Position numbers and translations under genes: made by a program. Of a DNA stretch of 64,000 nucleotides, positions 6,712-61,280 are shown one piece after another. The notes under the pieces were generated by a model. It was given only the letters and a program-made list of their open reading frames with translations. It ran no database searches and had not been told where the DNA came from. The stretch spans positions 175,584,001 through 175,648,000 of the forward strand of contig OX597815.1 of the NCBI GenBank assembly GCA_951406725.2, in the 5' to 3' direction. How positions within the stretch are numbered: the stretch's first letter is position 1; each line of letters opens with the position of its first letter. The stretch is from Octopus vulgaris (taxonomy: Eukaryota).

Positions 6712-7409
6712 TGAGAAATTTTTCACTCTATAAATTGCATTCCTATTCAGCTGTTTCAAGTTGAAATCAAATTGATAACGAATCAGGGCTGAAATAGTAT
6801 TCTATGTTGATGACCAGACCTCCGTGTCTATCTTTGCATGGAAAAGCACTATTAGTAGAGTAGGGACATTTTTCAACCAATTTCACTCACGTTTGTCAAT
6901 AGGAACAAATTCTTCCTTGAATGATAACACTTTCAGTGGAAATCCTCATATTAATGTCCCTCTACAGTCCAACTAGTGTATGGGATAAAAATGATGTATG
7001 TAGATGAGAACCAGCAAATACCCTTAACAATCAACAGAAATGGTCAATATCTGCAGGAATTTGGTCCAGAAAATGGATTATCATGATTTAGTAAAAATGT
7101 CCAGAAAACATTAATTTTGGACATACACTTTTCAACATGGAGTAATAACTCAATTATTAATTCATAAATTAGAACCGGATAGTGTTTAACTGGTAGTTAT
7201 TTAACGACCCCAAAAGGATGAAGGGTAAAGTAAACAGAATTAGAACTCAGAACCTAAAGATGGATGGAATACTGCTAACTATTTTGCTCGGTGTGCTAAC
7301 CATTCTGCCAGCTCTGCCCCCCCCCCCCCATATTTAGCCCAAACTATTAACTGAAGCAAATCGTTAACATATCACTGATTCAATGGATCAATCTTTGTTT
7401 TAATTCCAG

Positions 7410-9375: not shown

Positions 9376-10070
9376 CCAGGTAATAATTTTATTATTACCT
9401 GTATTCTACCTCATTTTAACAACTGGAAAACATCGTATTTGTTAGAAGCTGATGTTTATCTTAGTCATCTCACAGCCAGCAGACATATGAAGGAAGCCAT
9501 TCTCGCTGTGACCCTCCTTCTTTTCTCAGACACGGTGCCTGGGATCACATTGTCCAACGTTTCTTCTTTTAGGACAACAGAACGTGACTCGCAAATATTT
9601 TAAGCAGTTCTAATGACAACACAGATGCACTTTTGTTGAGGAGAAGTTTATTATTTTCCTGAAATTACAGAAACATCCAGTTACTAAGACCTGTGAAACG
9701 ATTTACTCAACTAAATTAACATCCTATTTAAACACTGAATACGATAAACTGGATTTCCCATTCCATTTCAAGACAACAACAATATATTCCTGTTTGCATA
9801 CTTTTCGCACTCACTCTTTATGCCACAAAATACCAACCGTTTCCTCAAATTCTGGTAATCATCATCTTACTTTGATATAAATTTGTAGGAAAATGTAATG
9901 GTTTCATTTTAACGATTGACTTTACAATTTGTTACTCTATTGAAGTGGAAATAAGGTGACAAAATCTATCAGAGATGAGTTTTAATTAATTAGCAAGTCA
10001 TGTAATGGTTCAGGCACTTCAACCAAATTTATGAATAATTACTAATGTTATTGTATAATATTTTATGCAG

Positions 10071-10217
10071 GTATATACTTTTGAGGTGAAAGAAACTACT
10101 CTCTATCCAAATGTTGTTGGCAGGGTTTCAGCAAGTGATAATGACGAAGGAGAAAACAGCAGGATTTCCTATTTTCTTAAAGGTCCTAACCGTAATGATT
10201 TCCACATCACTGAATCC
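10071..10217 (+). CDS. Cadherin-like gene exon 4
   Basis: tgcag|GTA...TCC|gtaagt; VYTFEVKE...VGRVSASDNDEGENSRISY; phase 0 to 0. Confidence 0.95.
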
Positions 10218-10418
10218 GTAAGTACAATCGTAACTTTACTATTATGAATTCTACTCTTAATCGTCTTGTAACACGGACCGTTTTCTCTTCAAGAGTGTGT
10301 AACAGTTAAAAGGTTATAAACCATCAACTTGAAACTATGTTTGCTCTACTCCATCCTGTTCACACATCACAGATACAGATGCATAAGTGGATATAGATGA
10401 GCAAGCTGTTTACTTTTT

Positions 10419-10610
10419 TAAGGCGGCGAGCTGGCAGAATCGTTAGCATGCCGGGCGAAATGCATAGCCGTATTTCGTCTGCCTTTACGTTCTGAGTTCA
10501 AATTCCGCCGAGGTCGACTTTGCCTTTCATCCTTTCGGGGTTGATATATTAAGTACCAGTTACACACTGGGGTCGATCTAATCGACTTAATCCACTTACC
10601 TGTCCTTATA
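10419..10610 (+). mobile_element. tRNA-derived SINE family 1, well-preserved copy
   Basis: A-box-like agctggcagaatcgttagc, B-box gagttcaaattcc, body gcctttcatcctttcggggttgat...aagtaccag; further copies near 7170, 13839, 24225, 28370, 33960, 41385, 51935, 62860. Confidence 0.9.
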
Positions 10611-11628
10611 AATAAAGAAATAAGCTGTTTATTTTTTCGAAACATAGTATTTTTGTGTAGATATATAAAAACAAGAATTGTGGAGTCATTGCTTTTTTTA
10701 ATTGGTTTAGTGTAATTATTGACAAGCCATCCAGACAACTAATTATCGTAACTCATATTTTGATATTGACACAATAACGTGTCAACTCTTTCAAAATTTG
10801 GATCCAAACTTGTGTTTTTCATTATAATTTTCAATCTTTCCCTCACCTTATACATCCAGACACCTGAGTATGTTTAGAAAAGGTAGATATACCTGCCGTA
10901 CAGGTCTCGTTTAAGTAAAAGGAAACATTATGCAAATTCTATCTGTCTGTCTGACTGTCTACCTATCCACCTACCCACCCACCTACTTATGCACATGAGT
11001 GTATATGTGTACATGCACCACTACTATCATGCTATCAAAACCACTCCACCACAACCCCACACAGTTCAACCACAGCACAAATAGCAGCCAAATTTCACTT
11101 GAATTATTCCCGGCCTTTTAGAAAAAAGGACTTATTAGAACATGTCGCTTAAAACACTAAACTCCATAGACCAAAGGTAACTTTGAGATAAACTATATCA
11201 GCCATCACCACTGCCACCACCACCACCACCACCACCATCACTCTGAGTGTTTTGATTCTGGAATTGTCTTGATGAAAGAATGATTTCAGACTTTTTAACT
11301 GACGATCCCACATTTTTGAGAACTGTACCAGTTTTACGCCAATTCAGGACTTGACTGGGAGCTATTTTATGGACACTCATCAGGATGAAGAATGAAGTCC
11401 AAATTCATGTTTTTTTGCTAAGAACATTATTTGCAAGTCGTTTAACACTCTACCACTTTTTTATCACTTTGCTTTTGAAAAGAACAAGAAATCCACTAGA
11501 TTTGAACCTTGTACCTGTCAATTATCTAGAAAGTGTCCTAACAGTTGTATCATTCTTCAGTTTCTCAATACAAATTAAAGGAATGATCATTGTTTAATAA
11601 AATATTCTCATCTTTATTATATTTTCAG

Positions 11629-11748
11629 GGAGATATCATCGTAAACCGTGGTGCAGAATTAGATTATGAAACTACTAAGATTTACAATCTTCAAGTGGTT
11701 GCCACAGACAATCCTACAGGCCAGGTGCATCAAAAGACAGCCGTTAAG
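11629..11748 (+). CDS. Cadherin-like gene exon 5
   Basis: ttcag|GGA...AAG|gtaaat; GDIIVNRGAELDYETTKIYNLQVVATDNP; phase 0 to 0. Confidence 0.95.
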
Positions 11749-12000
11749 GTAAATCTATATCATTTATCATTTAGCAGGCTGGAAAGCAGAGCATTCTCCA
11801 ATCGAAGTCAGATGTAGAGGGTTTGTTGGACACAGTGTGAGACGACTGTTGTTATTGTTAGGCCTAACTCATCGTAAAGTCAATACCACCATGACCGATA
11901 TCCAATCTACAGTGGAGAAGGCTAGCCACTGGATTTGGTTAAAAAGAGTCGATGAGCAATGGCTAGAAGAATATTGAGCTTTATTTGATAACCAGCTGAT

Positions 12001-12112
12001 CTAGCAAGCGGGGCCTCATATCAGTGAGCGGGGCTGGTGCACGTTGATGCCGTCGAGAGGTAGGCCCCGAAACGGCGCGCATTCTCTCCTGATGACCCCA
12101 AACACTTGCTGG
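12001..12112 (+). ncRNA. Structured GC-rich RNA element with hammerhead core segments in permuted order
   Basis: gccGTCgagagg, GAAAcggc, tctctcCTGATGA with complementary stems I and III; closed by ctagcaag/cttgctgg; stem II not canonical. Confidence 0.45.
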
Positions 12113-12164
12113 CTTCCGTATGCAGAGCCTTCTACTGGTAGCACTTGCACATGCAAGTTGTTTG

Positions 12165-12360
12165 CAAGACACATAAAAAGCACTGATGCTGGTGTCATGC
12201 AAAAAGTACCCAGTACACTCTGTGAAATGGTTGGCGTTACGGAGGGTATCCAGCTGTAGAAACAAGGGAGTCCAGTGTAGCTCTCCATCTTGCCAGCTCT
12301 TCTCAAACTGTCCAACCCATGCCAGCATGGAAATCGGACATTTAATGATGAAGATGAGGA
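12165..12360 (+). mobile_element. RTE 3'-tail fragment
   Basis: ggttggcgttacggagggtatccagctgtagaaac...ccaacccatgccagcatggaa...(atg)n, same as 3' end of LINE at 16391. Confidence 0.8.
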
Positions 12361-14322
12361 TAAATATATAACTCATGGCTACAAGTCGATTACCAGTAAA
12401 TACTATTTCTATGATAATTCTATTTAATCCTATTAGATCAATTCAACTTACTCTAAATTCTAACCACGGTTAGTTCAGCTCGTTGCTTTATCAATTGGCG
12501 ATAAACTAATTTTTTTCTAATTCACAACATCTATCCAGTTGTTATGTATCCCTAGTAGCCGTTGTGTCAAGAAAATGAATGTTAAATCTTTACGTAAATA
12601 ACATTTTTGTCTTCCACATGTTGCTTTTTTAAGACGTTAAAATTAAACTCAGTATCGAAAACTAATGAAATATTCATTTATTACCCACAGTATTTTGCCT
12701 CTTGTGGCTTGTTTAGACAAATTGAACAAACTATTTCATTCGTGAAACTGGTCATAGACAAAAAACGAAGAAAATGGGAAATGACCATCTCACCTTCAAA
12801 TCGTTATTTTGTGTCCTGTAACCTTAGCTCTCAGCACTCTCTGACATCACTCGGAACACTCTCTAATTTGCTAGCTTGCAATTAAAAGCACCATATTGAA
12901 GTGAATGATGCATTAGGAAACCACTCTGGTATTCTTTTCCCCAAGTGACTGAAGAATCAGTGTTTTAATGATACTTTCCAAAATATTAAACGATTAAATT
13001 GAACAACCAAAACAAAATTAGCCACAAGTCAAATGTGATGTGGGGTAGAGAGATCCCAAATGAACTAGATAATTAAATTACTTCAAAAAATTGGTGTAAA
13101 ACTAATACAAGTATGGACCCTAGGCATAAACGAAGTAAGACAAATGCTTTAAATTAGATTCTGCAGAACTGCGTGGTTAACAGTTCCAGGATTTTTAAGG
13201 TTCACTTGTCTTTAGTTTTAGAGAATCAAGTCAATAAAAGATAAACATCCTTTTAGACTTTAGAGGTAACATACCTAAATGATTTGGCTGTTGTTTCTGA
13301 TAGCTCAATGAACAGCAGTAAATAAAATCTGGGTTTTGTAAAGGCATATCAAGAATTGAACTGAAGATATATGAGCTGGTGGTCCACTACATCAAACTAT
13401 GAAGTCATTTCGTGTCTATCCACAGGGAATTGAAATTGTTATTAACGTCGTGAACACCATAACTATTTATAAAAATGAATATATCAATGCTTGTGTTTGT
13501 TTATAATGGTTTACACAAACAACTCTATCAGTTACAGTTAACTGGAAATGTAATTATTATTTTAAGATGTTAATCTGATTATTTTGAAAGTATTGTCGAT
13601 TATGAAAGTATCGCTTTGTATTGAGGTTTATCCTTTTTAACTTTGATCTTCTGTCCTTGAGATCTGGTCAAAATGAAATGTAGTCAGACATATAAAACGT
13701 AAGGCATGATAATTAAAACCGAGAATTAAATGACAAGCTTTAATTGTGGAGGAGCTTTTCTAATAATTCCACAAAGTCAATGATCGGCAACTTTACACAG
13801 GAACTAGAAAAACACAATTCACATTTTATTTAATATGTAAGGCAGTGAGCTGGCAGAATCGTTAGCACGCTGAGCGAAATGCTTATCGGTATTTTGTCTG
13901 CCACTACGTTCTGAGTTTGAATTCCACCAAGGTCAACTTACCCTTTCATCCTTTTTGGGGTCGATGAAATAAGTAGTGTTATGCGCTGGGGGTTGATGTT
14001 AATCGACTAGCCCCCTTCCCCCCAAATTTTCATGGCCTTGTGCCTAGAGTGGAAATAATTATATATTTAATATGCACAAATACATGACCACAAGTACAAT
14101 CACTTGGACATACAGAAGTAGTCAAATCGAAATTTATCGAGAAACATCATTTAGAATATGTGTGTGTGTGTGTGTGAAGATATAATTTTGTTTCTTAGTT
14201 GTAGTGAACCTGAGCACTGTTATACAACAATTTCTTTCATGTACACGCACACACACACACACACACATGCACACACTGAAACGTAATAGATATCACAGAA
14301 ACAAATGATTTGTTTGTTTCAG

Positions 14323-14509
14323 CTGATTATTAAAGTACTCGATGAAAACGACAACAGGCCTGTGTTTCAACCAAGTTCGGAATACTCATTTACCATTCAG
14401 GAAAAGGCCCCTGCTGGAACATTGGTTGGCCGAGTTACAGCCAAAGATGATGACTCCAATGAAAATGGAAGATTATCTTACAGTTTCATGTCAGGAAACC
14501 TCTTCAACG
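14323..14509 (+). CDS. Cadherin-like gene exon 6
   Basis: ttcag|CTG...AACG|gtattt; LIIKVLDENDNRPVF...VGRVTAKDDDSNENGRLSY; phase 0 to 1. Confidence 0.95.
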
Positions 14510-16380: not shown

Positions 16381-16390
16381 TACTGCAATA

Positions 16391-19300
16391 TCATCATCAT
16401 CATCATCATCATTTAACGTCCGCTTTCCATGCTAGCATGGGTTGGACGGTTCAACTGGGGTCTGGGGAGCCTGAAGGCTGCACCAGGCCAGTCAGATCTG
16501 GCAGTGTTTCTACAGCTGGATGCCCTTCCTAACGCCAACCACTCCGAGAGTGTAGTGGGTGATTTTATGTGCCACCGACACAGGTGCCAGACGAGGCTGG
16601 CAAACGGCCATGCTCGGATGGTGTTTTTATGTGCCACCGACACAGGTGCCAGACGAGGCTGGCAGACGGCCACGCTTGGATGGTGTTTTTTATGTGCCAC
16701 CGACACAGGTGCCAGATGAGGCTGGTGAACGGCCACGATCGGATGGTGTTTGTTACGTGCCCACAGCACGGAGGCCAGTCGATGCGGTACTGGCTACGGC
16801 CACGTTCGGATGGTTTTCTTGTGTGCCACCGGCACTGGTACCACAAAGATACAAATTCCATTGATGTTCATCTATTTTGATTTTGTTTGATTTTCACTTG
16901 CCTCAACAGGTCTTCACAAGTGTCACAAGAAGGAAGGTATGCACAGGTGGACTGACTACGTCCCAGGTAGGGGCCACGGGTTATGGCCTGACTAGTCTTG
17001 CCGGGTCTTCTCACGCACAGCATACTTCCATAGGTCTCGGTCTCTAGTCATTTCCTTGGTGAGACCTAAAGTTCGAAGGTTGTGCTTCACCACCTCGTCC
17101 CAGGTTTTCCTGGGTCTACCTCTTCCACAGGTTCCCTCAACTGCTAGGGTGTAGCACTTTTGCACACAACTATCTTCAGCCATTCTCGTCACATGACCAT
17201 ATCAGCGCAGCCATCTCTCTTGCACACCACAACTGACGCTTCTTAGGTTCAACTTTTCTCTCAAGGTACTTACACTCTGACGATTATGAACACTGACATT
17301 ACACATCCATCGGAGCATACTGGCTTCATTTCTTGCGAGCTTACGCATATCCTCAGCAGTCACGGCCCATGTTTCACTACCATGTAGCATGGCTGTACGT
17401 ACACATGCATCATACAGTCTGCCTTTTACTCTGAGCGAGAGGCCTTTTGTCACCAGCAGGGGTAAGAGCTCTCTAAACTTTGCCCAGGCTATTCTTACTC
17501 TAGCAGTTACACTTTCAGCACACCCACCCCCGCTACTGACTTGGTCTCCTAGGTAGCGGAAGCTATCAACTACTTCTAGTTTGTCTCCCTGGAACGTGGT
17601 AAAAGTTGGTCTCTGCACATTTCCAGTGTTTATTGCTCCTGAGCATCTGCCACAGACAAAAACTATTTTCCTAGTTAGCCTTCCTTTGACATTGCTGCAC
17701 CTCTTATGTGTCCATAGCTTACACTTGGTGCACCTTATAGAGTTTCTACCTACACCTTTTTTACAGATCGAGCAGGGCCATCGTTTGTGATTGGTCCACC
17801 TTCCTACTTATTAGGACTTTGGTTTTGGCTAGGTTGATTCTAAGGCCCTTCGATTCTAATCCTTGTTTCCACACCTGAAACTTCTCCTCCAGTTCTGATA
17901 GTGACTCAGCAATTAGAGCAAGGTCATCAGCATAGAGGAGCTCCCAGGGGCATCCTGTCTTGAATTCCTCCGTTATTGCCTGGAGGACTATGATAAATAG
18001 GAGGGGACTGAGGACTGAACCTTGGTGGACCCCAACCTCTACCCGGAATTCTTCACTGTACTCGTTGCCAACCCTCACCTTACTAGCAGTGTCTCTATAC
18101 ATGGCTCGCACAGCTCTCACTAACCATTCATCTATCCCTAGTTTCCTCATTGACCACCAGATAAGGGATCGGGGGACCCTGTCAAAGGCTTTCTCCAAGT
18201 CAACAAAAGCCAGATACAAGGGCTTATCTTTGGCTAGGTATTTCTCCTGCAGCTGTCTCACCAGGAATATAGCATCAGTAGTACTTTTCCCTGGCACGAA
18301 CCCAAACTGCATATCATCTAAGCTAACTCTCTCTCTAATTAATTGGGCTATAACCCTCTCCGTAACCTTCATTACCTGATCCAGCAGCTTGATGCCCCTG
18401 TAGTTATTTGTATCCAGGGCGTCACCTTTACCTTTGTAGCAGTTGACTATTATGCTGCTACACCAGTCATTGGGTATGACTCCTTCGTGTATCACCTGGT
18501 TAACTATACGGGTGACTAAGCTATAGCTGACACTACCAGATGTTTTGAGCATCTCTGCAGTAATTCCTGATGGGCCTGGGGCTTTCCCTGTTTTCATGCT
18601 TCTAATTGCCTCAACTACTAAAGAGCTGTTAACTCGGATTGCTGGTCCCTCTGTTGGGTCCACATTCGGCAGACTCTCTTTATCCCATTCATTTTCCTCA
18701 TTCAGCAACCTTTCATAGTGGCGTCTCCACGCCTCTCTCTTTGCATCCTCATTTAGCGCAAGTGAACCGTCATCCTTGCGAACACATTTCTCTCCTACCA
18801 TGTCACGATTCTCTCTCACACACTGTCTTGCAACACGAAATACCTGAAGTCTTTCATCCTCACGGCGCAGGACATTGGCAAATTTTTTCTTATCTGCTTC
18901 CCCTCTGGCTAGATAGACCTGTCTCCTAGCTTCCCTTCTGGCAGTCTGATACCCTTCCCTGCTACCACCGTTCTTCCAGGCCTTCCAAGCCTGTTTCTTT
19001 TGTCTAATAGCCCTGTCGACAATATTGTTCCACCACCACGTTATTTTGGGTCTTAAGGGGACTTTGCACCAGCCACAGATCTGGTCAGTGGCTTTCAGCT
19101 TCCCTCAGAAGCGTCCAGTTGTCTTCTACCCCATGCGTAGTTATACCCCCTTCCATTTCGTCAAAGGCTTCAAGTAACATGTCTCTAAATCTCTGTCCAT
19201 TCGCAGGGTCTTTAAGCTTCCAGACCCTTCTTCTCCATGTTGGTCATCTAGTCGCCCTCTTATTCTAGTCGCCCTCTTATTCCTGATCCTAAAGTCACTA

Positions 19301-38687: not shown

Positions 38688-39517
38688 GTATGTATAAAAG
38701 CTGTTTTTTTTTTCTCTATGTTGTCAACCAAAGGCATGAAATCAGTTAATGAGTTTAATTTTGAAGATTTGTTTAATTCCTCTTAGATTCTTAACTAAAT
38801 ACCAGATGTTTTATGAAGCACAGAGATTCGGTTTATATCGTATGAAATGGATGAGAAACAAGGGACACTCTGGATAGGAAGTCAGTCACTCAGGCTGATT
38901 CTTCAGCTACTTTACTACAAATTATGACAACCGGAAATTCAAGTTCAATCTATATTTCTAAGGATCTTGGAAAAAACCCGGATAACATGTTTCCTCTTTC
39001 ACTTCACCACTTTTAAGTCTAATTGAAATTTCGGTAATATTCTGTGGAGAGGCAAGAAGTTGTGAGATGTATGCCTCTCCTCATCTCCATTTATGAATCT
39101 ATAGCATAATCTAATTTTTAGTTCGATTAGAATTTATTGTCTCATGTTGAATAAAATTTTTTACAGTTTCTCTAGGATTGGGTAGCAAAAGCTATTGCAA
39201 TCAATTGTGTCTTTGTGTTTCTATCAGTATTTCATGCTTCTGGTATTTTTGTGTAGTTAAGGCATTGATCTTTTGTCTGTTAACATTGCGTCTTCTCTTC
39301 CAGAACACTCTTCTCATTGTGTGTTCTTACACTGATTTACTTTTCCATGTATCTGTAGAACTTAGAATTGTGTTTTGATATTTTTTCACCATTTTTGTAA
39401 TCCAAGCCCCAGTATATGTCTGGTACTTTATTTTTTGACATAGAGTTATGTCCTGCATCTCATTCCATTATTAGTCTAATCCTTTTCTATTTGCATGCTT
39501 CTAATTATTTTTATTAA

Positions 39518-39990
39518 CATCATCATCATCGCTTAAGGTTTGCTTTCCATACTAGCATGGGTTGGACGATTTTGACTGAGGGCTGGCGAACCAGACGGCC
39601 ACACCAGGCTCCAATCTTGATCTGGCAGAGTTTCTACAAGCTGGATGCCCTTCCTAACGCCAACCACTCCGAGAGTGTAGTGGGTGCTTTTTACTTGCCA
39701 CCGGCACGGGGGCCAGTCAGGTGGTACTGGCAATGACCTCGCTCGAATCTTTTTACACATGCCACCGGCACAGGTGCCAGTAAGGCAATGTTGGTAATGA
39801 TCACGCTCGAATGGTGCTCTTTTACATGCCACCGGCACGGAAGTCAGTTGGCTGCTCTGGCAACGATCACGCTCGGATGGTGCTCTTGGCACCCTACTAG
39901 CACAGGCACAAGTGTCAGTAAGGCGATGCTGGTAACTTTCACAGTCGAATGGTGCCCTTTTATGTGCCACTGGCACGGAAGCCGGTTAGC
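39518..39990 (-). mobile_element. RTE 3' UTR fragment with tandem repeat array
   Basis: same terminal module and tgccaccggcac units as 16391-16850. Confidence 0.85.
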
Positions 39991-46098: not shown

Positions 46099-46610
46099 AA
46101 TGTATTACTTATAATATATAGTTAGAATAGTTATATGTAATATATGTATATATATGTATAAAAATTATATATAAAAATACAAAATGGGACAAGAACGCAA
46201 AACACACAGAGACGACACAAAAAACGGACGGGTCATTCGAAGCCTCTAATCTTCAGTCAGGAACCAGATCATCCTAGCAATTTCGGCTGATTAATCCTGA
46301 TATCGCTCCGATCCGGCTAGCCCCAAGGAAAAACTAAGCTGCGAGCATTAGATTTCTTGGAAAAAGGATCGAATGTATATGAAACAAGGACAGAAAAACG
46401 GACGATGCCACACGAATATAAATACAAAAAACAAAAATAGTAATAACAGGACAAAAACAGTGGGTGTCTTACGACTTTAGACAGTTTAACTTATCTTAGC
46501 TGGTGTATTTTGAAATAAATGCCTTTGCGGCATAATATAATAATATAATATAGAGACATAATGTATATAATTTATAGAATATATAGACAGAATTTATAAT
46601 ATATACAATA

Positions 46611-53534: not shown

Positions 53535-53722
53535 ATCATCATCATCACCACCATCATTTCACGTCCGTTTTCCATGCTGACATGGGTTGGACGGTTCGAC
53601 CGGGGTCTGGGAAGCCAGAAGGCTGCACCAAGCTCCAGTCTGATCTGGCAGTGTTTCTACAACTGGATGCCCTTCCTAATGCCAACCACTCCGTGAGTGT
53701 AGTGGGTGCTTTTTACGTGCCA
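53535..53722 (-). mobile_element. RTE 3'-tail fragment
   Basis: matches 16391-16575. Confidence 0.85.
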
Positions 53723-60639: not shown

Positions 60640-61280
60640 TGATCCGCTAGATGTGTAATGTTAGTGTGCACACACGACAGAGTTAAGCACCCTGACAGAA
60701 ATGTTGGACATAAGAAGCATCGGATGTGGCATGCAAGAGAGACGTTTGCGTTGGTATGGTCATGTACAACAGATGGATGAGGAGAGACGTGTGAAGAAGT
60801 ACCACTCCCAAACAGTGGAAGGAATCCGGGGTAGAGGTAGACCCAGGAAAACATGGGATGAGGTGGTCAAGCGTGACCTATGTACGGTGGGCCTTACAGA
60901 GGCAATGACAAAAGACCAAGACCTCTGGAGGTATGCTGTGACTGAGAAGAGCTGGCAAATAAAGTGAGTTCACAGCTGTAACATACACCAGTTTCGCATA
61001 ACCAGCCCACTCAAAAGTACCTTGGATCGGAGAGCGACATGCCGTGCTTGACGAGAACTATTGAGTCAAGTAAATTAAAATCTAATGGAAATTGTAGTTG
61101 TGATCCCCATTCCGGTGGCACGTAAAAAGCACCCACTAGACTCTCGGAGTGGTTGGCGTTAGGAAGGGCATCCAGCTGTAGAAACATTGCCAGATCAGAC
61201 TGGAGCTTGGCGCTTCCCAGACCCCAGTCGAACCGTCCAACCCATGCCAGCATGGAAAACGGACGTTAAACGATGATGAT
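60640..61280 (+). mobile_element. RTE LINE 3' end (family of 16391-19881)
   Basis: RRLRWYGHV...GRGRPRKTWDEVVK, UTR, (atg)n tail. Confidence 0.9.

Follow-up and report, generated by a model that had tools for sequence, protein, structure and literature searches.

A predicted hammerhead ribozyme with a split stem II in the 3′ untranslated region of HERO-like retrotransposons of the octopus

Here we analysed a 64,000-nucleotide (nt) stretch of the Octopus vulgaris genome (the window; contig OX597815.1, positions 175,584,001 to 175,648,000) and found that a hammerhead-like RNA on its plus strand, at positions 12001–12112, lies in the 3′ untranslated region (UTR) of a HERO-like non-LTR retrotransposon (LINE). 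The RNA is predicted to be a hammerhead ribozyme in which the three core blocks stand in the order S-G-C and stem II is formed by a four-way junction; it is likely that it cuts read-through transcripts once per unit and that the element is copied from the rejoined, circular RNA.

All parts of a hammerhead core (CUGANGA, GAAA and UH) are present. On re-checking, the GUC triplet (12052–12054), GAAA (12069–12072) and CUGAUGA (12089–12095) were found where the initial annotation had placed them, with stem III (12048–12053 paired with 12072–12077) and stem I (12055–12060 paired with 12083–12088) in exact register with the core. Block S (12048–12060) comprises the 5′ strand of stem III, the GUC with the predicted cut after C12054 and the 5′ strand of stem I; block G (12063–12077) consists of the 3′ strand of helix IIb, GAAA and the 3′ strand of stem III; and block C (12083–12099) of the 3′ strand of stem I, CUGAUGA and the 3′ strand of helix IIa. 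The non-circular order UH-GAAA-CUGAUGA that had been described for the site was confirmed and is that of type-SGC hammerheads. The motifs are real and beyond chance: in composition-matched resampled DNA, an S-G-C core whose stems I and III both measure 5 bp or more was absent from 5.12 Mb of window-like and 5.04 Mb of UTR-like sequence, and with 4-bp stems the counts were two and zero, respectively. Judged from sequence, cleavage after C12054 is highly probable for the family. A search against Rfam matched no ribozyme family in window positions 10000–14000 or in 13 related loci, and an HDV-like reading, considered by eye, was rejected as no P2 pairing fits.

The ribozyme sits in a 5′-truncated copy of a retrotransposon with a restriction-like endonuclease (RLE) and a unit of approximately 3,737 nt. 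This copy occupies 11774–12171 on the plus strand and is 92% identical to the last 400 nt of the unit. It begins with a remnant of the C terminus of the open reading frame (ORF), comprising the end of the endonuclease domain and the stop codon (11774–11977; tblastn and translations), with 91% amino acid identity to residues 1044–1110 of the full ORF. Beyond the ribozyme, the rest of the 3′ UTR (12113–12171, plus strand) extends as far as the point where inserted copies usually have their 3′ end, approximately 117 nt downstream of the predicted cut. A 136-nt query gave 2,120 first-look candidates in the genome, and the 40 that were scored were 94–100% identical. The copies share sequence from 11774 to approximately 12171, starting at varying positions on the 5′ side and ending together on the 3′ side, and the youngest are more than 99% identical to each other. 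The site had been seen as an island within an AT-rich intron; its placement on the sense strand of an intron stands, but it is part of a high-copy repeat rather than a lone island. The sequence is therefore not single-copy, and its core is conserved and its helices covary.

A near-complete copy (L032) has an open frame of 1,110 amino acids with a reverse transcriptase (RT) domain (PF00078, E = 7.7 × 10−19), RVT_1 being the only Pfam match to this ORF. Reading the ORF by eye, we take it to contain in addition a C2H2 finger, a CCHC knuckle and a PD-(D/E)xK-like C-terminal end. An N-terminal AP endonuclease, a feature of the RTE clade, was absent in the Pfam search of the ORF. A single ORF with RT, CCHC and a C-terminal restriction-like endonuclease (the last two read by eye here) is the arrangement given for the HERO clade in the relevant passages of PMC4640811 and PMC7650587, which also describe mostly non-specific or microsatellite targets. 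Compared by eye, rather than in a tree, the RT is colinear with those of HERO-1_BF and HEROTn in the published alignment, and the flanks of insertions are varied and often TA-rich, with no fixed gene target, as in the HERO clade. The upstream ORF end, the domains of the full-length ORF and the RT colinearity together identify the ribozyme region as the 3′ UTR of a young HERO-like LINE.

Two identities suggested earlier for the carrier did not survive this result. An RTE tail is largely refuted by the HERO-like identity of the LINE upstream and by the finding that the repeat from 12187 onwards is separate and unrelated. Nor is the site a decayed copy of a retrozyme-like family, because the family codes for protein and the C/C arrangement at stem II is the family state rather than decay; a non-LTR retrozyme was rejected as the unit is coding, 3.7 kb long and in S-G-C order, and not non-coding with a type I hammerhead. 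The downstream repeat (12187–12363, plus strand), which we take to be SINE-like, has several other copies in the window. Similar repeats occur at 16388–16566, 39514–39706, 53541–53722 and 61114–61280, with a GAT-repeat tail, and are abundant in RNA reads. Among 29 family loci the repeat was matched in only three (L003, L018 and L025), and in none of these does it adjoin the element end.

Two features of element structure were observed in passing. Local tandem duplications of approximately 160 nt in L013 and L014 end at the ribozyme GAAA and restart in the ORF tail. The element leader (L053:6074–6326) contains about five short hairpins with GAAAGA loops upstream of the ORF, with similar hairpin arrays in L058, L061, L063 and L072; these could be protein-binding or translation-initiation sites on uncapped RNA.

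The wiring of stem II distinguishes this RNA. In the window copy, C-runs occupy both stem II positions, as had been noticed, and this is also the normal state of the repeat family; G-runs lie at 12010 and 12030. Covariation in distant relatives supports the proposal of a bridge between the C-rich strands, made by both G-runs with a hairpin between them. The resulting model, all on the plus strand, has a closing helix P0 (12001–12008 paired with 12105–12112; by folding), helix IIa (12010–12013 paired with 12096–12099, directly after CUGAUGA), a junction hairpin between IIa and IIb (12014–12029), helix IIb (12030–12035 paired with 12063–12068, directly before GAAA) and helix IIIb (12038–12042 paired with 12077–12081; by eye), which a 6-nt bulge separates from stem III.

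A scan of metagenome contigs yielded 28 relatives, 12 of which have a visible 3′ UTR. Six of the 12 fit a strict descriptor of the motif (L057, L060, L063, L068, L073 and L080, the last with AAAA for GAAA), a seventh (L059) fits apart from one mismatch in stem I, L078 has decayed and the motif is absent in four (L061, L072, L076 and L077). The six fitting relatives have 40–60% protein identity and keep the fold with compensatory changes. One other core-like match was found in the 198 kb scanned, on the minus strand of L062, with AAAA and no junction, and no relatives were found among the viral or prokaryote contigs searched. A HERO-like lineage without CUGANGA (L072:2656–3122, L076:6599–6845 and L077:2113–2500) has a different conserved 3′ UTR, without a match in Rfam; it may carry another ribozyme class.

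Pairing was compared across seven lineages, the octopus family (represented by L053) and the six fitting relatives, using a motif-anchored script for pair counting as MAFFT lost the helix register. Stems I and III are in register with up to four pair types per position; IIa has three to four pair types per position and IIb also covaries, except at its first pair, which is G-C in all seven lineages. As the pairs of IIa, IIb and the hairpin had themselves been searched for, pairing in 7 of 7 is in part built in. This does not apply to the geometry without gaps, the variety of pair types or the arm-swap result: every lineage has zero spacer bases at the junction in a search that permitted gaps of up to 3, and arms taken from another lineage fit in only 1 of 42 combinations. 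Shuffled arms equalled the observed score in 0–4 of 1,000 cases. At least a quarter of the young copies have five rather than six Gs in the junction run.

The first pair of IIb is also G-C in L059, in the majority sequence of an older octopus HERO family and in a second, unrelated repeat (both described below). The partner of C11.1 is always a G of the arm, whereas the base after CUGANGA varies (C, U or G) across the seven lineages, and we infer that the arm G (G12030 in the window copy) replaces G10.1 as the partner of C11.1. A direct 10.1–11.1 combination is C/C or U/C in six lineages and G/C in L073 only, so that stem II is not a single helix; the family consensus does not restore this pair, C/C being the family state. 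Likewise, stem II does not form by direct pairing of block C with block G, as it does in type SGC, and the segment in which the extra helix of type SGC would be expected, between the distal sides of stems I and II, appears by eye to pair with the upstream arm (IIIb). In the literature consulted, partly as excerpts, we found no tested precedent for a hammerhead without a direct 10.1–11.1 pair. The joint between III and IIIb was judged by eye against the k-turn consensus: a 3-nt bulge followed by tandem GA occurs in the older family, the second repeat, L063 and L068, and the family of the window has a plain bulge. A kink at this joint appears to be a conserved feature and would allow IIIb to bend back alongside the core.

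Two further families in the octopus genome share the design. The majority sequence of the older HERO family (L084–L113; 24 aligned copies) has the same helices with a 3-nt junction gap, and none of five single copies passed the descriptor. This decayed family is approximately 55–60% identical to L063 in the endonuclease region, and its copies often end beside TA or CA microsatellites. The other is an unrelated non-coding repeat with a unit of approximately 800 nt, represented in the window at 46150–46532 on the minus strand, with CUGAAGA at 46256–46250 and a predicted cut after 46301. Its core came up in the chance-control scan of the window, and the repeat has 4,919 candidates in the genome. 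It has IIb, the hairpin, IIIb, III and I, together with a IIa containing two U-U positions, and in stem I a G-C pair is swapped for A-U between subfamilies. The cut-site base, read by eye at 30 loci, is A in 15, C in 11, U in 1 and altered in 3, and never G. Head-to-tail and inverted partial duplications (inverted 5′ pieces) are found, in a pattern that we take to be Penelope-like, and the start of the upstream piece lies no more than approximately 12 nt from the cut in 4 of 14 tandem loci. A different RLE element, presumably R4/Dong-like, lies directly upstream of one copy of this repeat (L147:118–1388).

The copies of the HERO-like element carry traces of their template. Eleven of 19 copies with the ORF start extend further upstream, across a single invariant junction without added bases, into the 3′ UTR of the element itself, and eight of these reach past the predicted cut; truncation of the other eight falls within the leader, and no copy starts at the junction. 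Three long copies, picked for their length, span 1.53, 1.45 and 1.19 units seamlessly, with no clear target-site duplication. Continuity from tail to leader was also found in L058, L059, L063 and L072 and in contigs of two other organism labels; L072 belongs to the lineage without CUGANGA. The 3′ ends are staggered: in 13 of 47 (one locus counted twice) the match continues into the leader for at least 4 bases after the common end, which points to priming within a longer RNA. An apparent sharp 5′ end of copies proved to be an artefact of a truncated query locus. Copies of more than one unit that span the predicted cut are as expected from, and suggest, a circular or multimeric RNA template. Private variants common to both repeats of a copy, four in L053 and one in L054, favour this reading; against it, the two repeats of L053 differ at 10 sites, compared with 8 between its upstream repeat and L054, and those of L055 have no private variant in common.

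We propose that read-through transcription would make RNA longer than one unit, in which both ribozymes would cut, once per unit. The two halves of each ribozyme could stay paired through approximately 28 bp (P0, IIa, IIb, III and IIIb), holding the ends of the 3.7-kb monomer, which would then be ligated into a circle. The element protein would prime internally, approximately 117 nt past the cut, and copy on round the circle, giving mostly short, 5′-truncated copies such as that in the window and some that are longer than the unit. We lean towards this internal start and passage round the circle, with modest confidence.

The DNA evidence is accommodated almost equally well by a nicked, paired linear RNA combined with template jumping. 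The ribozyme would then cleave without yielding a free circle, and the template would be either linear RNA whose cut halves are paired, the RT jumping between its ends or over the nick, or a multimer that comes from tandem source loci and stays uncleaved. The RT of R2 is capable of template jumping end to end, and such templates would give equally seamless copies of more than one unit. The lack of copies of two or more full units among the three arrays examined fits them too. A dimeric source locus would also explain the private variants shared between the repeats of L053 and of L054. Against a linear template stand the invariance of the junction (11 of 11 copies, with no added bases) and the predicted cut site, where 54 of the 60 loci that contain the part downstream of it cross and none has an indel. 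One of these 54 has a two-base swap and the other 53 cross without an indel at the cut; of the remainder, five start 8–24 nt upstream and one exactly at the cut, so that cut-site scars are weak in the HERO family. We regard a linear or multimeric template as rather unlikely.

It is improbable that the fold is derived from a hammerhead but no longer cleaves, being kept as a site that recruits the RT–endonuclease by binding or defines where reverse transcription begins. The fold is in the 3′ UTR, approximately 117 nt before the end of copies, a region in which proteins of the R2 type bind the RNA of their element. The site is read through in most copies, and RNA ends, which the initial annotation had proposed to look for, did not accumulate: in three RNA-sequencing runs with another organism label (approximately 6% of reads each), there was no site at which many molecules begin or end. 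However, CUGANGA, GAAA and UH are kept across 40–60% protein divergence and in an unrelated repeat, and the core varies only at the tolerated positions N7 and H17, which a protein-binding site alone would not predict.

The window copy itself is a dead-end insertion. It has kept the catalytic bases and intact stems I, III, IIa and IIb, and differs from the family by four substitutions in the arm (12029, 12035, 12041 and 12043), which break the closing pair of the junction hairpin (C12029, G in the family) and one IIIb pair (at 12041). In nested models, the predicted pairing of CUGAUGA rises from 0.69 in the family to 0.93 in the window copy, which is probably impaired and a poor cleaver. The insertion lies on the sense strand of an intron (11749–14322) of a plus-strand gene with cadherin repeats, and starts 25 nt past the splice donor at 11749; weak cleavage would spare the host pre-mRNA. 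The preceding exon (11629–11748) is covered by RNA reads from a run labelled as another organism, and the next begins at 14323. Window positions 7379–30749 contain at least six cadherin-repeat exons on the plus strand.

The rod that had been proposed to sequester CUGAUGA is indeed the nested minimum-free-energy fold of the window copy, but it is no more stable than shuffled sequences (z = 0.28; second test, z = −0.51) and is weak or absent in L063, L068 and the second repeat. Across 10 sequences, nested-only models that ignore pseudoknots predict CUGANGA to be paired at 0.20–0.93, with 0.20–0.24 in these three, and a conserved conformational switch is not borne out. A switchable ribozyme of the host intron, or a decayed retrozyme carried by a downstream RTE-like tail, is thus very improbable: the sense orientation in an expressed cadherin gene and the rod would fit the former, but the sequence belongs to a coding LINE with thousands of copies and stops short of the repeat downstream.

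Type-SGC hammerheads (HRIMA-1 and variants) were described by Eckert et al. in 2023 (PMC10085705), in passages that assume, for all permutations, direct pairing of the CUGANGA-side and GAAA-side strands, and that treat CUGANGA and its stem II neighbour as one uninterrupted block. The HERO ribozyme shares with them the S-G-C order, the full core, a short linker between stems I and II and a doubly pseudoknotted fold, but its stem II strands pair with an upstream arm through a four-way junction. In those passages the type-SGC RNAs come from metatranscriptomes rather than from genomes of known organisms or from retrotransposons. Core insertions in the relevant part of Perreault et al. 2011 (PMC3088659) are of only 1–2 nt. 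In the mostly open-access literature that we searched, partly as excerpts, we found no description of the split stem II or of a ribozyme in HERO elements; Repbase Reports lie outside this literature, and parts S6–S18 of PMC10085705 could hold variants. Judged by its predicted pairing, the hammerhead of HERO-like LINEs is outside type SGC in the strict sense and an undescribed hammerhead variant.

Other retroelements offer partial parallels. In Penelope-like elements the terminal repeats contain hammerheads (Cervera and de la Pena 2014, PMC4209133). In the passages of that study consulted, these elements resemble the present system: the retroelement with the hammerhead is autonomous, partial duplications run head to tail, and a circular template for copying more than one unit has been proposed. 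They differ in their mostly minimal type I hammerheads, GIY-YIG endonuclease and telomerase-like RT; the HERO-like element has an R2-group RT, a restriction-like endonuclease and a rewired ribozyme. LINEs with ribozymes at the 5′ end are known from the corresponding excerpts (HDV-like in R2, PMC7650587, and in L1Tc; twister in Perere-3, PMC8501958). In these, too, self-cleaving RNA frees the element transcript from host read-through, but the ribozyme is at the 5′ end of a linear element; that of HERO is internal, 3′ of the ORF and spanned by copies. The passages on the HERO clade in PMC4640811 and PMC7650587 mention neither a ribozyme nor permuted ends. Animal non-LTR retrozymes, as covered in excerpts of PMC7229834 and bioRxiv 10.64898/2026.07.22.740005, have in common with the present elements tandem units, one hammerhead per unit and circular RNA (the last a retrozyme feature that is only predicted here), but are non-coding with type I hammerheads; among the present elements only the repeat at 46256 lacks coding sequence, and it carries a rewired ribozyme.

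If the proposed fold is correct, the hammerhead extends beyond the six published permutations and breaks their shared assumption on stem II pairing, and a non-circularly permuted hammerhead is present in thousands of copies in animal genomes. Because there are young copies whose ORF is intact, ribozyme, enzyme and template are open to joint testing. For gene insertion tools based on R2, an RT able to initiate within a circular template and to go round it more than once would be of relevance. If the cycle is as proposed, a LINE of the R2 group gains a circular-RNA cycle, hitherto proposed only for Penelope elements and retrozymes. We marginally favour the view that HERO elements, relatives of R2, replicate through circular RNA made by a four-way-junction hammerhead, by rolling-circle target-primed reverse transcription, and that the design has spread to non-coding, retrozyme-like repeats.
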